Translations under genes and position numbers: made by a program | The notes under the pieces: model-generated | Seen by the model: only the letters and a program-made list of their open reading frames with translations | Databases searched by the model: none | Told to the model about the DNA's origin: nothing | Assembly (NCBI RefSeq): GCF_026571515.1 | Contig: NW_026866456.1 | Location: 310,001-374,000 of the forward strand | Length of the DNA: 64,000 bases | Reading direction: 5' to 3' | Origin: Ruditapes philippinarum | Taxonomy: Eukaryota | In this document: piece by piece, positions 10,781 through 51,500 of the stretch | Layout of the letters: each line of letters starts with the position of its first letter | Position numbering within the stretch: position 1 is the first letter of the stretch

Positions 10781-12033
10781 AAACTGATCCTCCATTACAG
10801 TACTCTCCAAAATTATTTTTTTTCACTAGGTGAACCAGACTGCCATACATTTATCAGTGATTTTTATGTTCTTATATGGTTGTAATAAAATGTATATTAT
10901 AAATGCCCTACTTCCAACTGCCATTAATAAATGGAATTTTTAAGATGTTTATTGTTAAATAAACCCATTTAGAAATTTTTTATGGAAAGTTACAAGTAGC
11001 CTGCATAGGTATAAAACTATTTCTGGTTTATTTAAATGTAACACGGAAATTAAAACTGTCACAAATAAACTCATTTGTTATGAAGAATTTGTAATGAAGA
11101 ATTTGTGGCCAATTGCTTTTTTTCTTGGCACTTCTTTTTTTTTTTTTTTAGGAGATATTTACTATTAAATGAATGTGATCTATTCAAATGATAGTGTTTG
11201 ATCGATTGTTAATGATATATGCCCATTTTGACATTTAAAAGCTGTGATTAAAATTGATGAAGAACTTTGATTTATGCACTTTTTGCTTGGTATATTTATT
11301 ACTGCAGATGAATGCACCTAATGAACCTATCTCTAATGTAGTTTGCTAAGTTGTAATTAATAGACGAGTTTTAGGTTAATAGCCCTGCCCATGAAAAGTT
11401 GAACATTTGTATAATCCTTTGAGGCTATATTTGATGATTGGTATTTTCTGAATATCGGAGTTTATTATAGACTGTCATCCCAACTAAGCTTGACCAAATT
11501 GCTTGTGTCTTACGTGAGTAGAACCACCAACGTTCTGTAAGCTGGCTGCATAGCATTCTGGCTGCTTGAACCTACAGTGGTGGGAGGCAAGTGGTTTGAA
11601 GTCAACAACCTTAAACACTTGGCCACGTACACCCCATGCTTGTGTTTCCTGGGGCAGAAAATAATGCATTTAAGTGCAACTGTGGCCTTGAAAAAAGTTG
11701 TTAGTTTAAAATATCAGTTTTGGTGCAATTGTGATTAATGCATAAATTCAGCTTTAATATTTGAACTGGTCTTTTGTCTGTTCTGTCTTAACCAGTACTG
11801 TTGATTGCCATGTGAGTAATTATAGTGATGACCCCTGACTATGGCTTGAACCCATGAGTCCTGGGTTCAAAGGCATATGCCTTTAAGGCTAGACTCCCCT
11901 GTTGTCTTTAACAATTGTCTGTGCAACTCGAGAGTTGAACAAGCAAAGGAGAATTTTGTTACTGTTAATTTTAATTAACATCTGCATTAAATTTTGTCCC
12001 TTCAGGGAATAACCTAGAAGATCTACCTTAACA

Positions 12034-15000
12034 CCCGGCTGTACAATTTCCAAGGTTTCCTTGGACAATATCAGGGAATTTTTCATGGAAAAAACCTTGG
12101 AGTATTGGGTATACTTTTTCAATACAATAAGAGTAAATTAAGAACAAAAATGGCAGGGTCTTTCCTAGGACAAATGCTTGGACAAATGCTTGGAAACCTT
12201 GGAGCTTGTACAAGGTTTCCATGAACATATGCCATAAACCTTGGAAACCTTGGAGTATTGGGACCAAGGTTTTTTCATTGGACATCCTTGGAAAGCTTGG
12301 ACATTTACATAGACATCCTCGGAAAGCTTGGACATTTCCATGGAAGTCCAATGTTATTTCCGTGGAATTGTCCAAGGTTCTTCAAGTGAAAAAAACCTTG
12401 GAAAACCTGGGAAAATACTAGGACATCTTCATGATCTTGCAAAGCCATAGACGCTGTATCTTTGATGCTTGTAATTTCTGTGCTTTCTTACAATAGCCCC
12501 TTTGAGATATGGAATTTTCATCATTCTTATAACTAGTTGCCTTTAAATCCCTGACATATTGATGAGCTCGCTCTCCATCATTTTTAAACACAATATGTTA
12601 CACTGGTAGAATACAAAACATAAAATATTATAAATATTAAAACAATATTTATTCCGCTTGGTAACATCAATGTCAATGTCAATTTCTGGACAGCTTCAAA
12701 AGTCACATATGGCCATTTTCTCTTGATCAACTCTGAAATAAAAATATTAAAATGTCATTAAAAACTACATTCAAAACACTTAATTATACATGTAGTAACA
12801 AATGAGGAATGCAAGTCTTAAACAATATATTTTAAACGACAACATAATTTTATATTTCCCTTGCACTATTATCATTATCAAGGGAATAAGCACTCAGTAG
12901 ATATATATAAGACTTCCTAATTAATACAGATTTTACTTACTTTGAATAACTATGTATAAGGACATTAGAGTTTAAGTACATTAGTTGCAACTTAATGCTG
13001 TGTAAAACTGTAAAATACTGCAAAAAAAGATTAATATGTTCAAATTTGATTACAATTCTAGGAAATAAAATTATACAAACCATGAAGGACTTTCAGTAAT
13101 ATTGTGTCCTCCAATGCTGGCCTTGATTTCGGTTTTAGTGTTGGTACTGTTGCCAGTAAAACACCTGCCCCTGTATTCTTCAACACTATATAGTTTTCTG
13201 AACAGGAGCTTGCTGGCTTTTGAGAGGTCATCACTGTACTTTACATATCCTTACAGCTGTTCCTGGAATAATATAATTTAAGTAAGCAAAGTTTCAGTAT
13301 ATCTAGTCTATTTTAACATTAAATACATTGAATTCTCCTTAATCTTCATTTTCCATTAAAACTTTTTATCTTCAAAATTTAAGTTGAGCATACTAACTTG
13401 GAATTTCAGTAAGTAAATTAAACAAATAACTGATTCAATATAGAAATAATTAATAAATCTAGATCTAATTATCAAATAATTATTCACAGCATAATTTTAT
13501 CAACCTTATAGATTGTTGTATTATAGAAACATTTTTGCTTGCTGCCATAATATATTTTGATTGTTTAAAATAACCATTTTTCTGCATAAATGTATCTAAA
13601 AGTTATTTACCTGAAACTGTTTACTATGATTCTTGCATAACTTCCTGCCTCAGGTCATTCTTAGTTCAATTACAACAACCAAACAATTCCACAATCTTGT
13701 CACATTTAGATAAATGTTTTCTTTGAAAATTCCACAATAATGTACACAATATTCAAAAACAAGATGATATCTCCAAAATAATCTGGAATACCACTTAGAT
13801 CCTTTATGGTTAGCACTGAATGTCTGAGATTTCAAATTTTGCAACGGTTTCAGTCTGGACAAGTCTATCATAATGTGAAACAGGGATTATCAAAAAAAAA
13901 AATCAAAACACCCATCATTGTATTTTTACATTTATTGAATGTATAAACATATCAAATGATAAATAAATGTAGAATTTGAAAATAATAATAAGTGTGTAAA
14001 AAATCAATGTTTCAATGTCCTTCTAAACTGATTTTTTAGAAATGTATCATGCTCAGATTCCCTTAATAATCACATGGAATAGTCTGGTCAGCATCCCAGA
14101 ATGCCCCATGAGGTCAGATTAGTCATGCAAAGATAGAGGGAAGGGCAGATGGTAGTCATTAGTCTTATCTGACCTGTGTGTTATATTAGTATTTATTTAT
14201 CCTGACTAGGCAAGCTGGTTATTATATTTAACAAATTTTGCAGATAAAGCCATATATATATAATGGGCAATAATTATTATATAATTTATGTGTTTATTGT
14301 GCACATAAACTAAGTGGCAGAGTAAAGTGTAACCTAAATGTATGTCTACAAATATTCAGAGAATGTACTATTTTATATGGCCTAAAAACATATACTCTTA
14401 TATCAAAGTTTAATAGCATTCTAAAATTATTTAACTGTTGCTTACATGCTGTCAAGAAATAAAAAAAGTCTAAAGATACAAACTACAGGGAAGATACTCA
14501 TGCATCTAGAAACTTAGAAACCAACAGAACATTTTCCATACTGTTTTGATAAAAAAAATTAAATGTACTATGTATTATACTCAACATCATTCATCTCTGT
14601 AATGCAATGAATTTAGTAGATTGTATGCATGTACATGTATATATTTGATGTTTTTAATAACTTTATATTTGATAATTAAATACAAAAATCAATAAATGAT
14701 TATATTTCTTAAAAATGTCTATTTACATGTATATCTTCTGAAAAGGATTAAATATTCTTTTCCATCTAGCACATCATAATGACAATAAATGTAAATAATT
14801 CATTATTCATTATCATTAGGATGATTGAAAAAATGAAAGAAAAATTGCCTAAGTCCTTTGTCCAAGCTGAAAATTTTCTAAGTGTTTCTTTCCAAGTGAA
14901 AAAAAATCCAAGCTAAAAATTGTCTAAGTGTCTGAATGTGTTCATTTTCCCAGCTTGAAAAAAACTATGTTTTACTTTCCCAGGTATTGTCCAAGCGATT

Positions 15001-15178
15001 CCTAGGAATTTTTCAGACAACCATGGAATATGTCCAAGGAAAAGTTAGAAAAAAAACCTTTCACTTTGGACAATTGCAACATTGTCCAAGGTTTCCTAGT
15101 AAAACTACCATTAAAGCTTGGACTTCCATGGTTTTTTCCATGATTTTTCTTGAATACCTTGGAAAATACACAGCCGGG
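12034..15178 (-). mobile_element. CACTA/EnSpm(CMC)-like non-autonomous DNA transposon, ~3.1 kb
   Basis: Termini CCCGGCTGT...ACAGCCGGG with the imperfect TIR extending through TTTCCAAGGT. 2-bp TSD CA on both sides. Dense subterminal CCTTGGA/TCCAAGG/CCATGG repeats at 12034-12420 and 14850-15178. Confidence 0.75.
12645..13262 (-). pseudogene. Decayed spliced BEN-domain gene fragment carried by the transposon
   Basis: Minus-strand exons 13262-13081 (acceptor ttccag, donor gtttgt) and 12732-~12645 (acceptor tttcag) join in phase 1. Translation: SKASKLLFRKLYSVEEYRGRCFTG...(frameshift)KPKSRPALEDTILLKVLH-E-LIKRKWPYVTFEAVQKL, which fits the BEN pattern. One in-frame TAA and frameshifts are present. 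Confidence 0.6.
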
Positions 15179-15761
15179 CAATTATCTTTGCACTAAGTTC
15201 ATGCATTGAAGCTTTCCACATAATTAGTGAAGAATATTTGTATCAGATATAAGATGAAAGAAGGATTATATAACTTTTGTGACCTTTATTTTCAAAGCTA
15301 ACATTAACACAAGTCCTATCTGTAAAAAAGAAAGTCTGTGGGTAAAAAACCCCAAGTGCTTTAAGTAATTGTTATTGACAGTATAACCAATAACAACTAT
15401 AAACAAAAGGGATACAAAACAATATGATGTCATTCACTGTTTAAACTTCTTTGCCTTGATTAACAGTCAGATGGTATATATAATTAACATCAATGAACTC
15501 TACTAGCAAATATTATGGCTTGCCAATAGTCAACCAATAAAGGTATTAGGCTGTTTGTTTGAATCAGAATCCTGCTGACTCAATGTTAAAAGTATTAGAA
15601 GAAAAATGTCTTTAAAACTATCGAAGCAAACTTCAGACGACAGTTCACTTAAGTCATTCGGAGTTTTATACAAGTTAACTAGTTTATAATTGCACTAAGG
15701 TGACAAAATTTGGTTCGTTAATAGGTAAAGACTAACGTATGTTGATATTTTGTTATTACAG

Positions 15762-15936
15762 AATGGGTCAGTCATGTTCCAGTAGTGAGAGCTCGAGTAG
15801 TGGCTCGGAGAGCGACAGTGATAACAGCTCGGACAGTGAGTCGGATAAAGATGTCTCTGATGACGAGAATCATCATGCCACGCCACAGGGAACTCCCAAT
15901 AATCCAGATAATATGGAAACCTCGCCTTCATCTGGG
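15762..15936 (+). CDS. lilli: AFF/lilli coding exon, Ser/Asp-rich (MGQSCSSSESSSSGSESDSD...PSSG)
   Basis: Acceptor ttattacag at 15753-15761 and donor gtacgt at 15937. Phase 0 into the next exon. Ser-rich tract typical of AFF proteins. Confidence 0.8.
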
Positions 15937-18900
15937 GTACGTTTTTATTTTTCTCCGAAAAAGTCAAAGTCCTTGTGAAAAGATGATATTTCAGTTTTTA
16001 CAAAAGTAATGAATGTCTGTTGAAAAAGAAAGGTTTTATCTTTGTGTTAAATCTATATAAAGATTTGCAAGTGAAGTAAAAAGATTTGAAAGTGAATGGC
16101 TATTTAATTCAGACACTATATCACTCAACCTATTGGATGACTAAGATGAAAACTGCAAGTGGTGATTAGTGCATACTGTTGGTGCATTTTAAGAACAGAA
16201 AATCTGTTGATTCATCTATGGACATTTCAAAAATCAAAGCTAAAACGATTGATCATTATGTAAGGCTAGATGTCTAAGGCAGTTCAGGAATTGTGTTTCG
16301 ATCATACATACAACATTTAAAACTTGACAGCTTGAGTACATTTTCTGATTGACTTACAATTCTAAATGCATGATTTATGTATATGCAGAAGATAATTTGT
16401 ATGCTGCAGTACTCAATAACTGATTGTAGGTTTTGAAACTTAATGCTCTTGATGTCTCAAAAAAGAATTTAAAGAGCTCGGCATTCTCTTTTGAGAAAAC
16501 ACAGTGAAATGTTTTAGTTTCACAGAAAATGTTGTAAAATTGCACAGTTCCTTTACTGAAAATCTTTCAATCTTTGATGAGACAGTATGAAGATAATAAC
16601 CTGTCTAGAGTTTATATCTCCATTCTTAGGTCTAGACTAGATCAAATGCCAACTAAATCGATTCTGTGTCAACTAAGTGCAACTGAAATTTTATATGTCT
16701 AGATCTAGAATATCTCATTTCTTTTACCTTAATTTGTGCTTTTGCTTAGTTGAATTTCTTTAGGGTAAAAAAGATATGAAGTTCAGAGCAGCAAATTCTG
16801 ATTTCTTAGAAAATTGACATATATTGGCTGATTCTGATGCAGACAAAATTTTGTTTCTGTTATACATTGATATTTAGTAAGAATCAGAAAAAATAAAAAT
16901 TTAAATATGTAAGCAATGAATTTTATTTATTACACTTGTTTGTAAGTTAGCTCCAAATGTAGATATCAAAGAAACCATAATTTATGTGTTAATGATAATT
17001 TGTTTTGTATACATAATGACATTTTTATGTGTCTATTTATAGTCCAAAAAATGGAACCTTGGGGCATTTCTGCAGCAACCCCAGTCTATTAATATGGGAT
17101 CGAAGCCCCCATCCTGTGACGCACCAGCCTCGAATAAATCTGATCATTTTGAAGAGGACACAGAGATGAAAAGAGGGGCTGACCACGTATCGGACGAGAA
17201 TCCGCCATCGGTCGATCAGGATCTGTTATCAAAGCCAATGTCAGCCGACGAGTTCTCGCCACCTGCTCCGATAGAATCTAAACACATCCTGTCTCCTATC
17301 AAATCTCCACTTGCCCCGCCCATAAAGTCTCCATTACCAGCGATTATATCGCCAATGCAGTATACCCCTAAAGCAGCTGAGAAAGGTTTTCCATCATCAT
17401 TGAGTGCTAACGAGGTGCCCAGTCGCAGTAAAACTGCTGATCGGGGAAAACATAAAGACAATAGTTTGCCTTCTAAATCGGTCACCGATGGTCCTGAAAC
17501 AAAAGGAAGACGGTCTCGGAAAAAGAAGCAAAATATAGTGTCGGTCCCTATTATAGACACTTCTGATTCCGATTCCGATATAGACGTTGAGAAAATGTCT
17601 TCTGATAGTGCTTTAAGTTCACCACAAAAACCTCTTCCACTGAACTCGCAATTAAGTCAAAAATATACGCCATTAGATAAGTGTTCAGCAAATCTTGGTA
17701 CAGTTAAACGGAAAGAGACTAAAAGAGATAAATTACTCAAAGAAAAAGATTCAGTGAAGTTAAAAAGAGAAATTGCAATGGCAAATGTACCTAGTAAAGA
17801 CTGTGATAATAAGAAAGCAGCTTCGCGGATGTATGCACGTAGTTTTACGGATTCCATAGACGATATGCTAGACACATTTTCTGGCGAGAAGCCATTGTCA
17901 CCTATTCGGAGTGTTACTAATATAAATAAGATTAACCCTACGGAACAGGACTTAATACGGGCCGGTCTCAACGTGTCTACAAAAACCCCAAATTCCCTTA
18001 CTGGAAATATATCCTGTGCAAGAGAAAAACCGCCAGTGTTAGTAAAAATAGATCTAAATTTGTTAGACAAAGTCCTATGTGTAGATAGGCATAGCCCATA
18101 TTTCCTGAAGCCTAAGGAGCATTTAAGTGGTAAGCACCGTAAAAATCTGACAAGTGCCAAATACTCTTCAAGTGATATCAGATCCAAGAAAGTGCACAAT
18201 GACACTGTTAAGGATAAACTATCTAAGTCGACTGCCTCAAAAATAAGTGCAAATAGTGTACCTGATATTGATTTAAGTGATAAAAAGTATGTGCCAGAAA
18301 AAGAAAGGATATCAAATGTGAATTTGACTAGTAAAAAGGATATACCTAAAAGCCATGTTCCGAGTTTTGAGTCTCTACCGGTCCGAGAACCGGTAAAAAG
18401 TGAATCTTTATCTGATGATTTAAGTGATTCGGATAGTGACGGAAGTGCTAGTGAGATAGAAGACTCTAAGCACGTGGAGTCCGTGCACGATTCATTATCT
18501 ACATCAAATCATTCGTCTTTCAGTCAATCTCCGCACGAGAAAAAGAAACGCAAACTAAATACCACAAGAGATGATGACACGAAGAGACGGAAAACCTTGT
18601 CTAAGTCACCTGCAAATTTGCCAGCATCCGAGATAGTAAAAGAGTAAGTACTTAAGATGAAGTATTTTAATATTTATTTTTATTTATACTCTATGCAAGA
18701 GGTTCTTGAATATGTAATTAACTCAATGGCTCTGATTGAAGAAGAACCTACTAAATCTCATTGGTAAACAAAGACATCAAAGACATTGTTTGATTCATTA
18801 CATTAGAACAATTTTTAATGAGTAAAGCACAAAAAAAACTAAATAGATTATTCAATAGCTTATAGCCAAAAGTTAAGTTCAAACAAAACTCCTTATACTT

Positions 18901-48500: not shown

Positions 48501-51500
48501 GGAGCTTGTAAAATATAAAGACTCTGATACTCTACTGATTAAAAAGAATGATGCAACTATTGAGATCTTAAAATACATGACTTGTATAAAGGGACTCCAC
48601 TGAGGTTTTTTGACATAACCAACATTAAAATAAATTTTCGAGATTAATGTTGCAATGAGCTTGATTTTTTTTGGAAAATTTGTAGCCTATTTGAAACACA
48701 ATAACGTCTTCTCCTTGAAACTAACCCAAACTGGTGTGATATGAGGAAACTTAATCATTGCAAGACCAGTAGGCCTTGGTTGAGAGGCAGACACATTGAT
48801 AATTAGGACTTAGCCACTGCTCCCTATATTCTTTGCCTGTTTGCCTATATTCTTTGCCAACTTTCCTTGATCCTTTGCCTGCTTCCCTTGATTCCTTGCC
48901 TGCTTCCATGGATTCCTTGCCTGATTCCATTGATTCCTTGCCTGATTCCATTGATTCCTTGCCTGATTCCATTGATTCCTTGCCTGATTCCATTGATTCC
49001 TTGCCTGATTCCATTGATTCCTTGCCTGATTCTGATTCCATTGATTCCTTGCCTGATTCCATTGATTCTTTGCCTGATTCCATTGATTCCTTGCCTGATT
49101 CTGATTCCATTGATTCCTTGCCTGCTTCCATGGATTCCTTGCCTGATTCCATTGATTCCTTGCCTGATTCCATTGATTCCTTGCCTGCTTCCATGGATTC
49201 CTTGCCTGATTCCATTGATTCCTTGCCTGATTCCATTGATTCCTTGCCTGATTCCATTGATTCCTTGCCTGATTCTGATTCCATTGATTCCTTGCCTGAT
49301 TCCATTGATTCTTTGCCTGATTCCATTGATTCTTTGCCTGATTCCATTGATCCATTGCCTGCTGGCAGTGCAGACCAAGATCAGCTTGCTTACCAGTGCC
49401 AGTGCCACCTGGTCTGCACTTCATTTTTTAGTGAGTGCATAATTTGAATTTTCCCTTAAAACTGATGAATGGAGTAGTTCAGATTGAAAGCGGACAAGTC
49501 CATTAATTTTGATATATTTAGTGTTTTAAGGGTAAATAATATGTTTACGGGGCCTGTAAATAGCAAACAGGATCTCTTGACAGAAATCGGTCATGCAAGC
49601 ATGTAATCAGGTGCAATATAATATAAACAGATGTGATTATGCCATGAACAACATCCTTATATTATAGCCAAATGTGTAATTATTAATATTATTCAGAAAT
49701 TGAGAGGTTTGACATTTTCTGGGCACATAAATTTTTATCTTTCCATATTTCTTTTTCTGCCTATAATTTACATAATGCAGTAAGGTCTTGCTGTTTTTTT
49801 ATCTTCTCATTCGCCTGTTTCTACGAGGGTATTAATGGCACTTAAATCTGGTAATATAAGATGGACGGTTTCCGGTGAACTATTAGAACAAGAGACGTGG
49901 CTGTTTGCGTGTGCACGTATAATAGGCATTTATCAAAGCAACTGCGGTAGCTGTAAATCTTTATTGATTTGTATTAATACAAGGAATTATATCTCTATCA
50001 CAGAAAAAAACAACAAAACAACAATAACAACAGCAAGAAATAGCATTATAATCAAAGCTTAGAGAAAATGGAATTCTCGCCATTTAAATTTTTTATACTG
50101 GCATTTCAATTATTGTTTTTTCTTTTGAATCTTGTGAAATTGAAAAGGAAATTAAAAAAAAATATGATTTTGCAGGTTTTTCTTCTAATGCTTTGAAAGT
50201 AGATCAATAGAGATGCATGTTTTACCTGGGATTATTCATTGAGAAAAATGTATCATTTACATTTATTATATTAAGTTTGTTTGTGTAGGAAGCTATAACC
50301 CTATAGACACACTCTTGAATCTGTCCCTTAAGAACCAAACATAAATGTAAAGTTTCTTGCTTAAGGAAACAGAAAGTTGCCCTTGACAAGGTTTGAACCC
50401 ACAGACACTAGTTAGACTGACAGGTTAACCACTCGGCCATGCAGCTACTTTCACATTTGTAAAACATAGTTTTATTACCTTGACGATGTTTGTACCAGGT
50501 TTTAATTTAGACATAAAACTTATGTAAATAAGAGGTGATATAGTCATTTTGCTAAAATGTTTGGTTATATAATAGCTGAGAAAAAGGAAGTACTGAGTCA
50601 GAATGATTTTTACTATTATAATGAATTTTACATACTTAAAATGGTGAACATATCATCAGTGCCCTATAAAACATACCTATATTCATCATATTATTTTCAA
50701 CCCATATCTAAAGCAGTCTTTGTCATTTTGTTCTCTGGGAATATACAGAATTCTCTTTTCTCTTTTGTGTATAATTATGTCTGTGGCAGTTAAAGGAGAG
50801 CCATAAACAGCCCGTTTGCTAATTGAGTTGGGCTCGGAAAAAGGTTTTTAAAGATATTGGGAAAAGATAAAAATCTAATCATTCAAGCATTCCAATCATC
50901 AGATGAAATTTAAACAGACCACAATTTTTTTATTGTTAATCAAGTTGCACAAGTCAAGATTTTGATTATGTAACTTCCTTCTTAATTTCTCAACTGTTTT
51001 TAACTGACTGGAATAGTTGAATAATGGAAGGGAGATAACCAGGGCTTTTAAGTAAGATTTAAGAGTAATTAAATTTGAATGGATATATTTTCCGGATGAA
51101 TATTTGGAAAAGACTGTATCAATCTCCAACATTTCCAATGGGATAGGGAATGTCAATATTTTTATTATAAATTCCTTATTTTTTTCTAAAACAACTATTT
51201 TAGGTATAAGCCAGTAATCAGTGCTTGGACCTAAAATTTTTAGCCTTTGCCACTAGTATTGAGCCAGGCCAGCCTGTACATCTGTGTAGTCTAACCTGAC
51301 TATATATTGTTGAATGACCAACTTCAAAATTGTGATATCCCCAAAATTGGTAATGGACCGTACCAAAAGTGGAGGTTAGACAAGTCCATTTTAGACATTT
51401 AGGGGAATAAAGGGTTTAAAAAAGAAGATTATTTCTTTTAAGGGTTGAAGGCCTTGTTTGAAGTATGATAACATTATTTTTTTGTATATATTTCAGTTTA

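Follow-up and report, generated by a model that had tools for sequence, protein, structure and literature searches.

The element and its locus

The window analysed here, a 64,000-nucleotide stretch of the Ruditapes philippinarum genome (contig NW_026866456.1, positions 310,001 to 374,000), carries at 12034-15178 a transposon relic of 3,145 bp with CCC...GGG ends, which lies in an intron of an AFF4-like gene and contains the remains of a gene for a BEN-domain protein. Its left terminus, CCCGGCTGT at 12034, and its right terminus, ACAGCCGGG at 15170-15178, the reverse complement of the left one, have no second occurrence in the window and are flanked by CA/CA on their outer sides. The two end regions (736 nt) hold 18 CCWWGG motifs, whereas shuffled sequences (n = 2000) hold 0.34 on average and 4 at most, and the interior of the element holds none; CCTTGGA itself occurs seven times at the left end and once at the right. 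The ends, the CA duplication and the subterminal arrays described in an earlier note on this DNA are thus borne out. The same is true of its assignment of the element to the EnSpm/CMC type, given the CCC terminal inverted repeat (TIR), the 2-bp duplication and the Transposase_21 domain of the candidate parent, C12294. Transposase_21 is absent from the window copy, in agreement with that note, and present in C12294.

Relic of the BEN gene

The AG/GT boundaries of the exon at 13262-13081 and the acceptor at 12733 are kept in all ten full copies of the window family, and the two exons join in phase 1, as had been proposed. The TAA at 13253 is private to the window copy, and the peptide quoted in the note is a composite read across a +1 frameshift near 13128. 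The last exon does not run to about 12645, as the note had it: the ancestral stop is at 12681-12679, after a deletion of 32 bp. Deletions of 28-34 bp at this place are found in 10/10 full copies, and the BEN gene is broken in every one of them. The deletion takes out most of the predicted C-terminal recognition helix, which is present in autonomous relatives and not intact in the window family; in solved BEN-DNA structures this helix (helix 5) reads the bases (PMC11472053). Since the loss is common to all ten copies, the family multiplied after its usable BEN gene had gone.

A micro-inversion of the last exon was ruled out, its score lying within the shuffle range; the change is a deletion. 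A general trend of selection against the recognition helix was also rejected, because the helix is lost in family F0 and in most of family B, and not in A, C or F2.

Identity of the second protein

The in-frame exon of the older copy L010 matches the Pfam BEN profile (PF10523) with E 0.007 over profile positions 6-45, a half-domain. Among the BEN exons of relatives, 3 of 12 exceed the Pfam cut-off (some of them single-exon), seven fall below it and two have no match. No homologue turned up when the 46-aa exon served as query in a word-seeded search; a profile of eight exons retrieved 83 proteins, whose named sources are clams, scallops, mussels and a pearl oyster, and a full-length homologue aligned to the window BEN exon at 49%. 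With a profile of 49 homologue rows, BEND6 is matched at E 4.5e-11 and Insv at E 0.012.

Models of two homologues, P0003 and P0062, have the five-helix BEN fold (TM 0.58-0.66). For P0003 (pLDDT 77), the 13 best Foldseek matches listed are all BEN structures, and the full-length model of P0062 reaches Z 10.6 to BEND6. Residues 1-59 of P0062 form a barrel that aligns with the Tudor domain of ARID4B at Z 8.2 (51 residues, rmsd 1.6); this barrel and the BEN domain are separated by a long coiled coil. In the models the N-terminal barrel resembles the Tudor domains of ARID4 and KDM4; the barrel exon had no match among PDB sequences, and its Atlas feature matches stayed below 0.9. The BEN identity suggested by the earlier note is upheld by the BEND6 profile match, the Z score to BEND6 and the L010 exon.

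Candidate parent and the transposase clade

Searching the genome with PF02992 (Transposase_21) gave 17 matches. One of them, C12294, has an open frame of 826 codons (E 1.4e-12) adjoining the right end of the window family, with 84-90% identity to the right end in the window (84% over 632 bp). Its opposite strand carries a barrel exon and coiled-coil exons, and the contig end is an 80% match to the BEN intron of the window. The contig C4197 holds both the parent-type upstream exon and a BEN exon, which links the one to the other. Residues D265, D352 and E608, which we take to be the catalytic triad of Transposase_21, are conserved in all rows covering each position.

In the tree of the 17 transposases, 13 fall into one clade (support 100/99), the members being mostly only 29-57% identical to one another. 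On the opposite strand, a BEN exon was found in 11/13 and a barrel exon in 12/13, the remaining cases, C12294 and C8749, being truncated where their contigs stop. Wherever the second gene was seen (12 elements), it is encoded on the other strand from the transposase, in a head-to-head layout with a shared upstream region, and in nine elements of the clade (11.5-18.1 kb) paired TIRs enclose both genes. Copies carrying a Transposase_21 and a BEN gene together, which the earlier note had proposed to look for, therefore exist.

The BEN exons are under purifying selection, with dN/dS of 0.12, 0.29 and 0.18 in the three of ten pairs that combined unsaturated dS with real divergence; in six pairs dS was saturated or near 2, and the last pair had diverged too little for a judgement. 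BEN distance is correlated with transposase distance (rho 0.47 and 0.63), and the BEN groups and the intron position follow the transposase tree. The clade-wide opposite-strand layout and the constraint on the BEN exons argue that BEN is a fixed second gene of the lineage and no passenger, as the note had suggested. A weak match to the barrel exon (E 0.003) was also seen at G000:C4399:10710-10886, on the other strand from one of the outgroup transposases; the pairing of two genes may not be confined to the clade of 13.

End motifs

The end motifs are short, quasi-palindromic and family-specific: CTTGGA in the window family and C8777, CATGGA in family C, CATGAA in F2 and GTGGA in B. Solved BEN domains bind short palindromes, such as TTCCAATTGGAA for Insv and ACATGT for NACC (PMC8887127), and in En/Spm the subterminal repeats are bound by TnpA (PMC2613891). 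The Insv site TTCCAATTGGAA has a half-site in common with the window array, and seven such hexamers occur in the ends, compared with a shuffle maximum of six. Coevolution of motif and BEN was supported by neither of two partial Mantel runs (11 and 10 elements, C9764 being left out of the second). A natural case of decoupling is the element at G000:C8901:23559-39633: the first 13 bases of its terminus are those of F2, its end motif is a different one, and its BEN, encoded in a single frame of 319 codons, is distant.

Copies of the family and target-site duplications

Searching the genome with both element ends and the interior gave ten full copies of the window family (3.06-3.19 kb), nine at 96-99% identity and one at 87%. 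The exact terminal pattern occurs at 23 sites in the genome, against none for the reversed control. The 2-bp duplication is exact in 6/10 copies of the window family and inexact in the other four, so that the expectation of the earlier note holds for the majority of copies only. Over all scored families it is exact in 28/43 elements (chance 0.08 each), 14/15 of the imperfect ones are off by one base, and no 3-bp duplication was found among the 43 elements. An empty paralogous site was available in fetched DNA for nine of the 33 junctions tested, and in eight of these nine the difference was exactly +2 bp. Taken together, these counts indicate that the 2-bp duplication is real yet often imperfect.

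In the three imperfect duplications with an empty paralogous site (L001:6782-9888, L033:3250-8749 and L043:3934-8283), all four changed bases touch the element end, and the flanking bases of the window copy fit the mismatches of its three closest sister copies. During transposition a single base of the donor flank may travel with the element, which would explain the imperfect duplications of the group. At G000:C7838:302764-313748, two near-identical copies of the window family lie in the same orientation 7.9 kb apart, which suggests a local hop.

Borrowed module and transcription

The module at 13451-14510 is shared with the non-autonomous families F3 and B, which have different ends (it lies there at L025:2128-3312 and L043:6146-6654), and was not found in the available part of C12294. 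A search with the interior of the element gave 212 candidates, and most of the scored ones fall within this module. The splice donor at 13610 is conserved in the window family, F3 and B, and public gene models of family B (named Ruditapes philippinarum; P0002 cluster, 17/18 members named) splice the homologous donor to BEN exons. The module has no in-frame start codon, showed no coding homology to autonomous elements at E 0.05, and an open frame in F3 gave no BEN match. The "further decayed exon" that the note ended at 13610 therefore has to be abandoned as part of the parent's BEN gene, whose native upstream exon differs: because the module was not found in the available part of the parent, is shared with F3 and B and has no protein match in the autonomous elements, what was taken for a third exon is a plausible donor within borrowed sequence. 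This module is possibly a portable promoter or first exon.

Other families

The copies L033, L036 and L037 of family A (5.5 kb) are very young (98-99%) and transposase-less, and in L036 and L037 the barrel and both BEN exons are open; these copies are the best candidates for an expressed helper gene. Family B (L039-L047), with the ends CCCGTCCC, is present in high copy number and annotated as many host genes of 100-108 aa. Six copies read carry a stop in the last BEN exon, together with a 24-bp deletion that affects the recognition helix; L044 does not. Family F1 (L013-L018), with the ends CCCCAGTA, is a distinct CCC-ended family holding a nested remnant of the BEN family F2; it was rejected as a BEN carrier, since its BEN comes from that remnant.

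Feature coordinates and host gene

The coordinates of the features are collected in Table 1. The position inside an AFF intron is confirmed by the AFF4-like homologue of Mercenaria, whose exons mapped to both sides of the element, between 44.6 and 10.7 kb upstream of the window and again from position 15865, with residues 487-529 left unplaced; a profile search with PF05110 gave no match anywhere. Several reading frames of a tandem repeat at 48751-49447, within the span of the AFF gene, stay open for about 200 codons. A short repeat at 11515-11635, which attracts thousands of partly matching RNA reads, is probably a fragment of some abundant interspersed repeat.

Table 1. Features of the element and its surroundings in the window.
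Feature	Position	Strand	Remarks
2-bp target duplication CA, left copy	12032..12033	.	
Left TIR core	12034..12042	+	9 bp perfect; ~36 nt if imperfect, 75%
Left subterminal array	12043..12430	.	12 CCWWGG and 16 looser SCWWGS motifs, both orientations
Last BEN exon relic	12679..12732	-	Ancestral stop 12681-12679; 32 bp gone between 12704 and 12703 compared with the older copy L010
GT-AG intron splitting the BEN domain	12733..13080	-	Phase 1; position same in families A, B, C and C8777
Main BEN exon relic	13081..13262	-	TAA 13253-13251, private to the copy; +1 frameshift about 13128
3' part of native upstream intron	13263..13445	-	13312-13445 with 80% identity to the end of parent contig C12294
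Borrowed, non-coding-looking module	13451..14510	-	Family F3 75%, family B 67% over 13591-14094; carries donor at 13610
Transposase-side end of the parent	14558..15169	.	84% to C12294:3945-4545
Right subterminal array	14840-15169	.	6 CCWWGG and 10 looser motifs
Right TIR core	15170..15178	-	
2-bp target duplication CA, right copy	15179..15180	.	
Next two AFF4-like exons (host context only)	15865-15948, 17043-18644	+	

Discussion

According to our analysis, the BEN gene is almost certainly the element's own second gene and the window copy is dead, an inert intronic insertion. The fuller reading, to which we give a probability of about 0.6, is that this copy is a non-coding, internally deleted derivative of a two-gene EnSpm/CMC-type transposon, the second gene of which encodes a predicted Tudor-like/coiled-coil/BEN protein, likely repeat-binding and likely TnpA-like. 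On this reading the transposase would cut at the CCC ends, and the BEN protein, oligomerising through its coiled coil, would load on the arrayed half-sites, where it may help to pair the element ends, regulate the shared promoter, or both; the Tudor-like barrel would read chromatin. The window copy would have moved with transposase and BEN protein both supplied in trans. That BEN binds the subterminal arrays is more probable than not, and so it likely plays the part of maize TnpA.

Several results weigh against this reading. The C12294 contig stops short of the BEN exons, which is why no intact BEN gene of the window's exact family was seen, and none of the four outgroup transposases had a BEN match, three of them being on short contigs or close to where a contig stops. 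Pfam gave no match for the exon frames of the window copy itself, so that the Pfam check proposed earlier succeeds with the L010 exon and the 3/12 relatives and fails with the window exon. The modelled proteins are homologues from other bivalves and not the window relic, and none of the Foldseek rows for the homologue models reaches E 0.001. Four RNA runs, each sampled to 4-12%, gave no spliced read at any of the predicted junctions and a depth of 1-2 or 0 over the BEN exon. Finally, in the partial Mantel analysis the distance between end motifs goes with the transposase (rho 0.45-0.50, p ~0.001); with the transposase fixed, no BEN signal is left (rho -0.01 to -0.08, p 0.5-0.7), whether the core, the full domain or the last helix is compared. 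The test is of low power, with kin sharing labels, and is confounded by descent, so this null result does not refute BEN binding; nor does it support it.

The dependence of the end motifs on the transposase is also what would be expected under a serious rival, a chromatin or promoter role for BEN. Here the protein would be the element's own and would act as a regulator, in anti-silencing or autoregulation, binding elsewhere, while the transposase reads the subterminal repeats. The likeness of the barrel to the Tudor domains of ARID4 and KDM4 and the divergence of the two genes from a shared upstream region suit such a regulator. Against it, the size and palindromic form of the motifs suit known BEN sites, the plant precedent gives such repeats to the second protein, and C8901 combines an F2-like terminus with another end motif and a distant BEN, albeit as a single case. 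We therefore regard this alternative as possible, though on balance doubtful.

The idea that the BEN exons are a captured fragment of a host gene, a passenger of the Pack-CACTA type, is largely refuted and now very improbable. It could appeal to the broken state of all ten window-family copies, to the foreign 1-kb module that the element acquired, and to the many bivalve homologues annotated as ordinary genes; but the same gene recurs on the same strand and in the same order in 11-12 of 13 elements with such divergent transposases, its exons are under purifying selection, and its groups and intron position match the transposase tree. Equally improbable is a functional window copy, with the borrowed module as the source of a spliced transcript for a mini-BEN, or of an RNA, that regulates the family or the AFF gene: the splice dinucleotides conserved in 10/10 copies support it weakly because the copies are young, and the splicing of the homologous donor in the family B gene models speaks for it, but the stop, the frameshift, the loss of the recognition helix, the lack of an in-frame start in the module and the RNA runs count against it.

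Comparison with known systems

Our literature search, whose scope left outside the original BEN papers, Repbase, Dfam and supplements, found no pairing of BEN with EnSpm/CACTA elements. What the present work contributes is a census of the whole clade within a single genome, together with a candidate parent, a test for selection and a covariation test with a null result, and it serves as a warning that many "BEN-domain genes" annotated in bivalves are transposon parts. The clam elements give ready test pairs, each a protein with its own end motif, and would place BEN among the DNA-binding domains with a transposon history. A wider proposal, that the end-binding factor of animal EnSpm elements is a Tudor-coiled-coil-BEN protein with its own motif per family and that BEND6 and Insv descend from transposon helpers, is speculative and, at present, unlikely; if true, a single clam genome would offer about ten natural BEN-motif pairs from which to read out BEN specificity.

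PIF/Harbinger elements are two-gene transposons with a transposase and a Myb/MADF DNA-binding protein. The clam elements are alike in having a separate gene for the DNA-binding partner and differ in the transposase, the ends, the duplication and the DNA-binding fold.

With the animal TRC elements (SmTRC1 of Schistosoma mansoni and the TRCs of Aedes and Tribolium; PMC1636069) the clam elements share CCC-starting TIRs, Transposase_21 and an often inexact 2-bp duplication, exact in 7/14 copies of SmTRC1 compared with 28/43 clam elements. The putative second proteins of SmTRC1 come from alternative splicing and are described as without detectable homologues (PMC1636069), unlike the second gene of the clam clade, which is separate, lies on the opposite strand and is conserved with a Tudor-like, a coiled-coil and a BEN part. 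The SmTRC1 paper did not settle which accessory protein the animal EnSpm/CACTA elements use (PMC1636069); the BEN gene of the clam clade is now a named candidate.

Like maize En/Spm and soybean Tgmt* (TnpD and TnpA; PMC2613891), the clam elements combine Transposase_21, family-specific subterminal arrays, a second protein of DNA-binding type and deletion derivatives moved in trans. Unlike En/Spm, they have neither CACTA ends nor a 3-bp duplication, and their BEN gene lies on the opposite strand, whereas TnpA belongs to the same transcription unit as the transposase (PMC2613891).

BEN-solo factors are described as host genes, without mention of transposons in the available text of two papers (PMC8887127; PMC11472053), and BEN is not among the transposon-derived DNA-binding domains in the accessible part of the Codebook preprint (PMC11601247). 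The second protein of the clam elements matches these factors (human BEND6, 7YUL/7YUN; Drosophila Insv, 4IX7, and Bsg25A; BANP; NACC1) in profile and fold, and it carries a coiled coil upstream of the BEN domain, as BANP does (PMC11472053).
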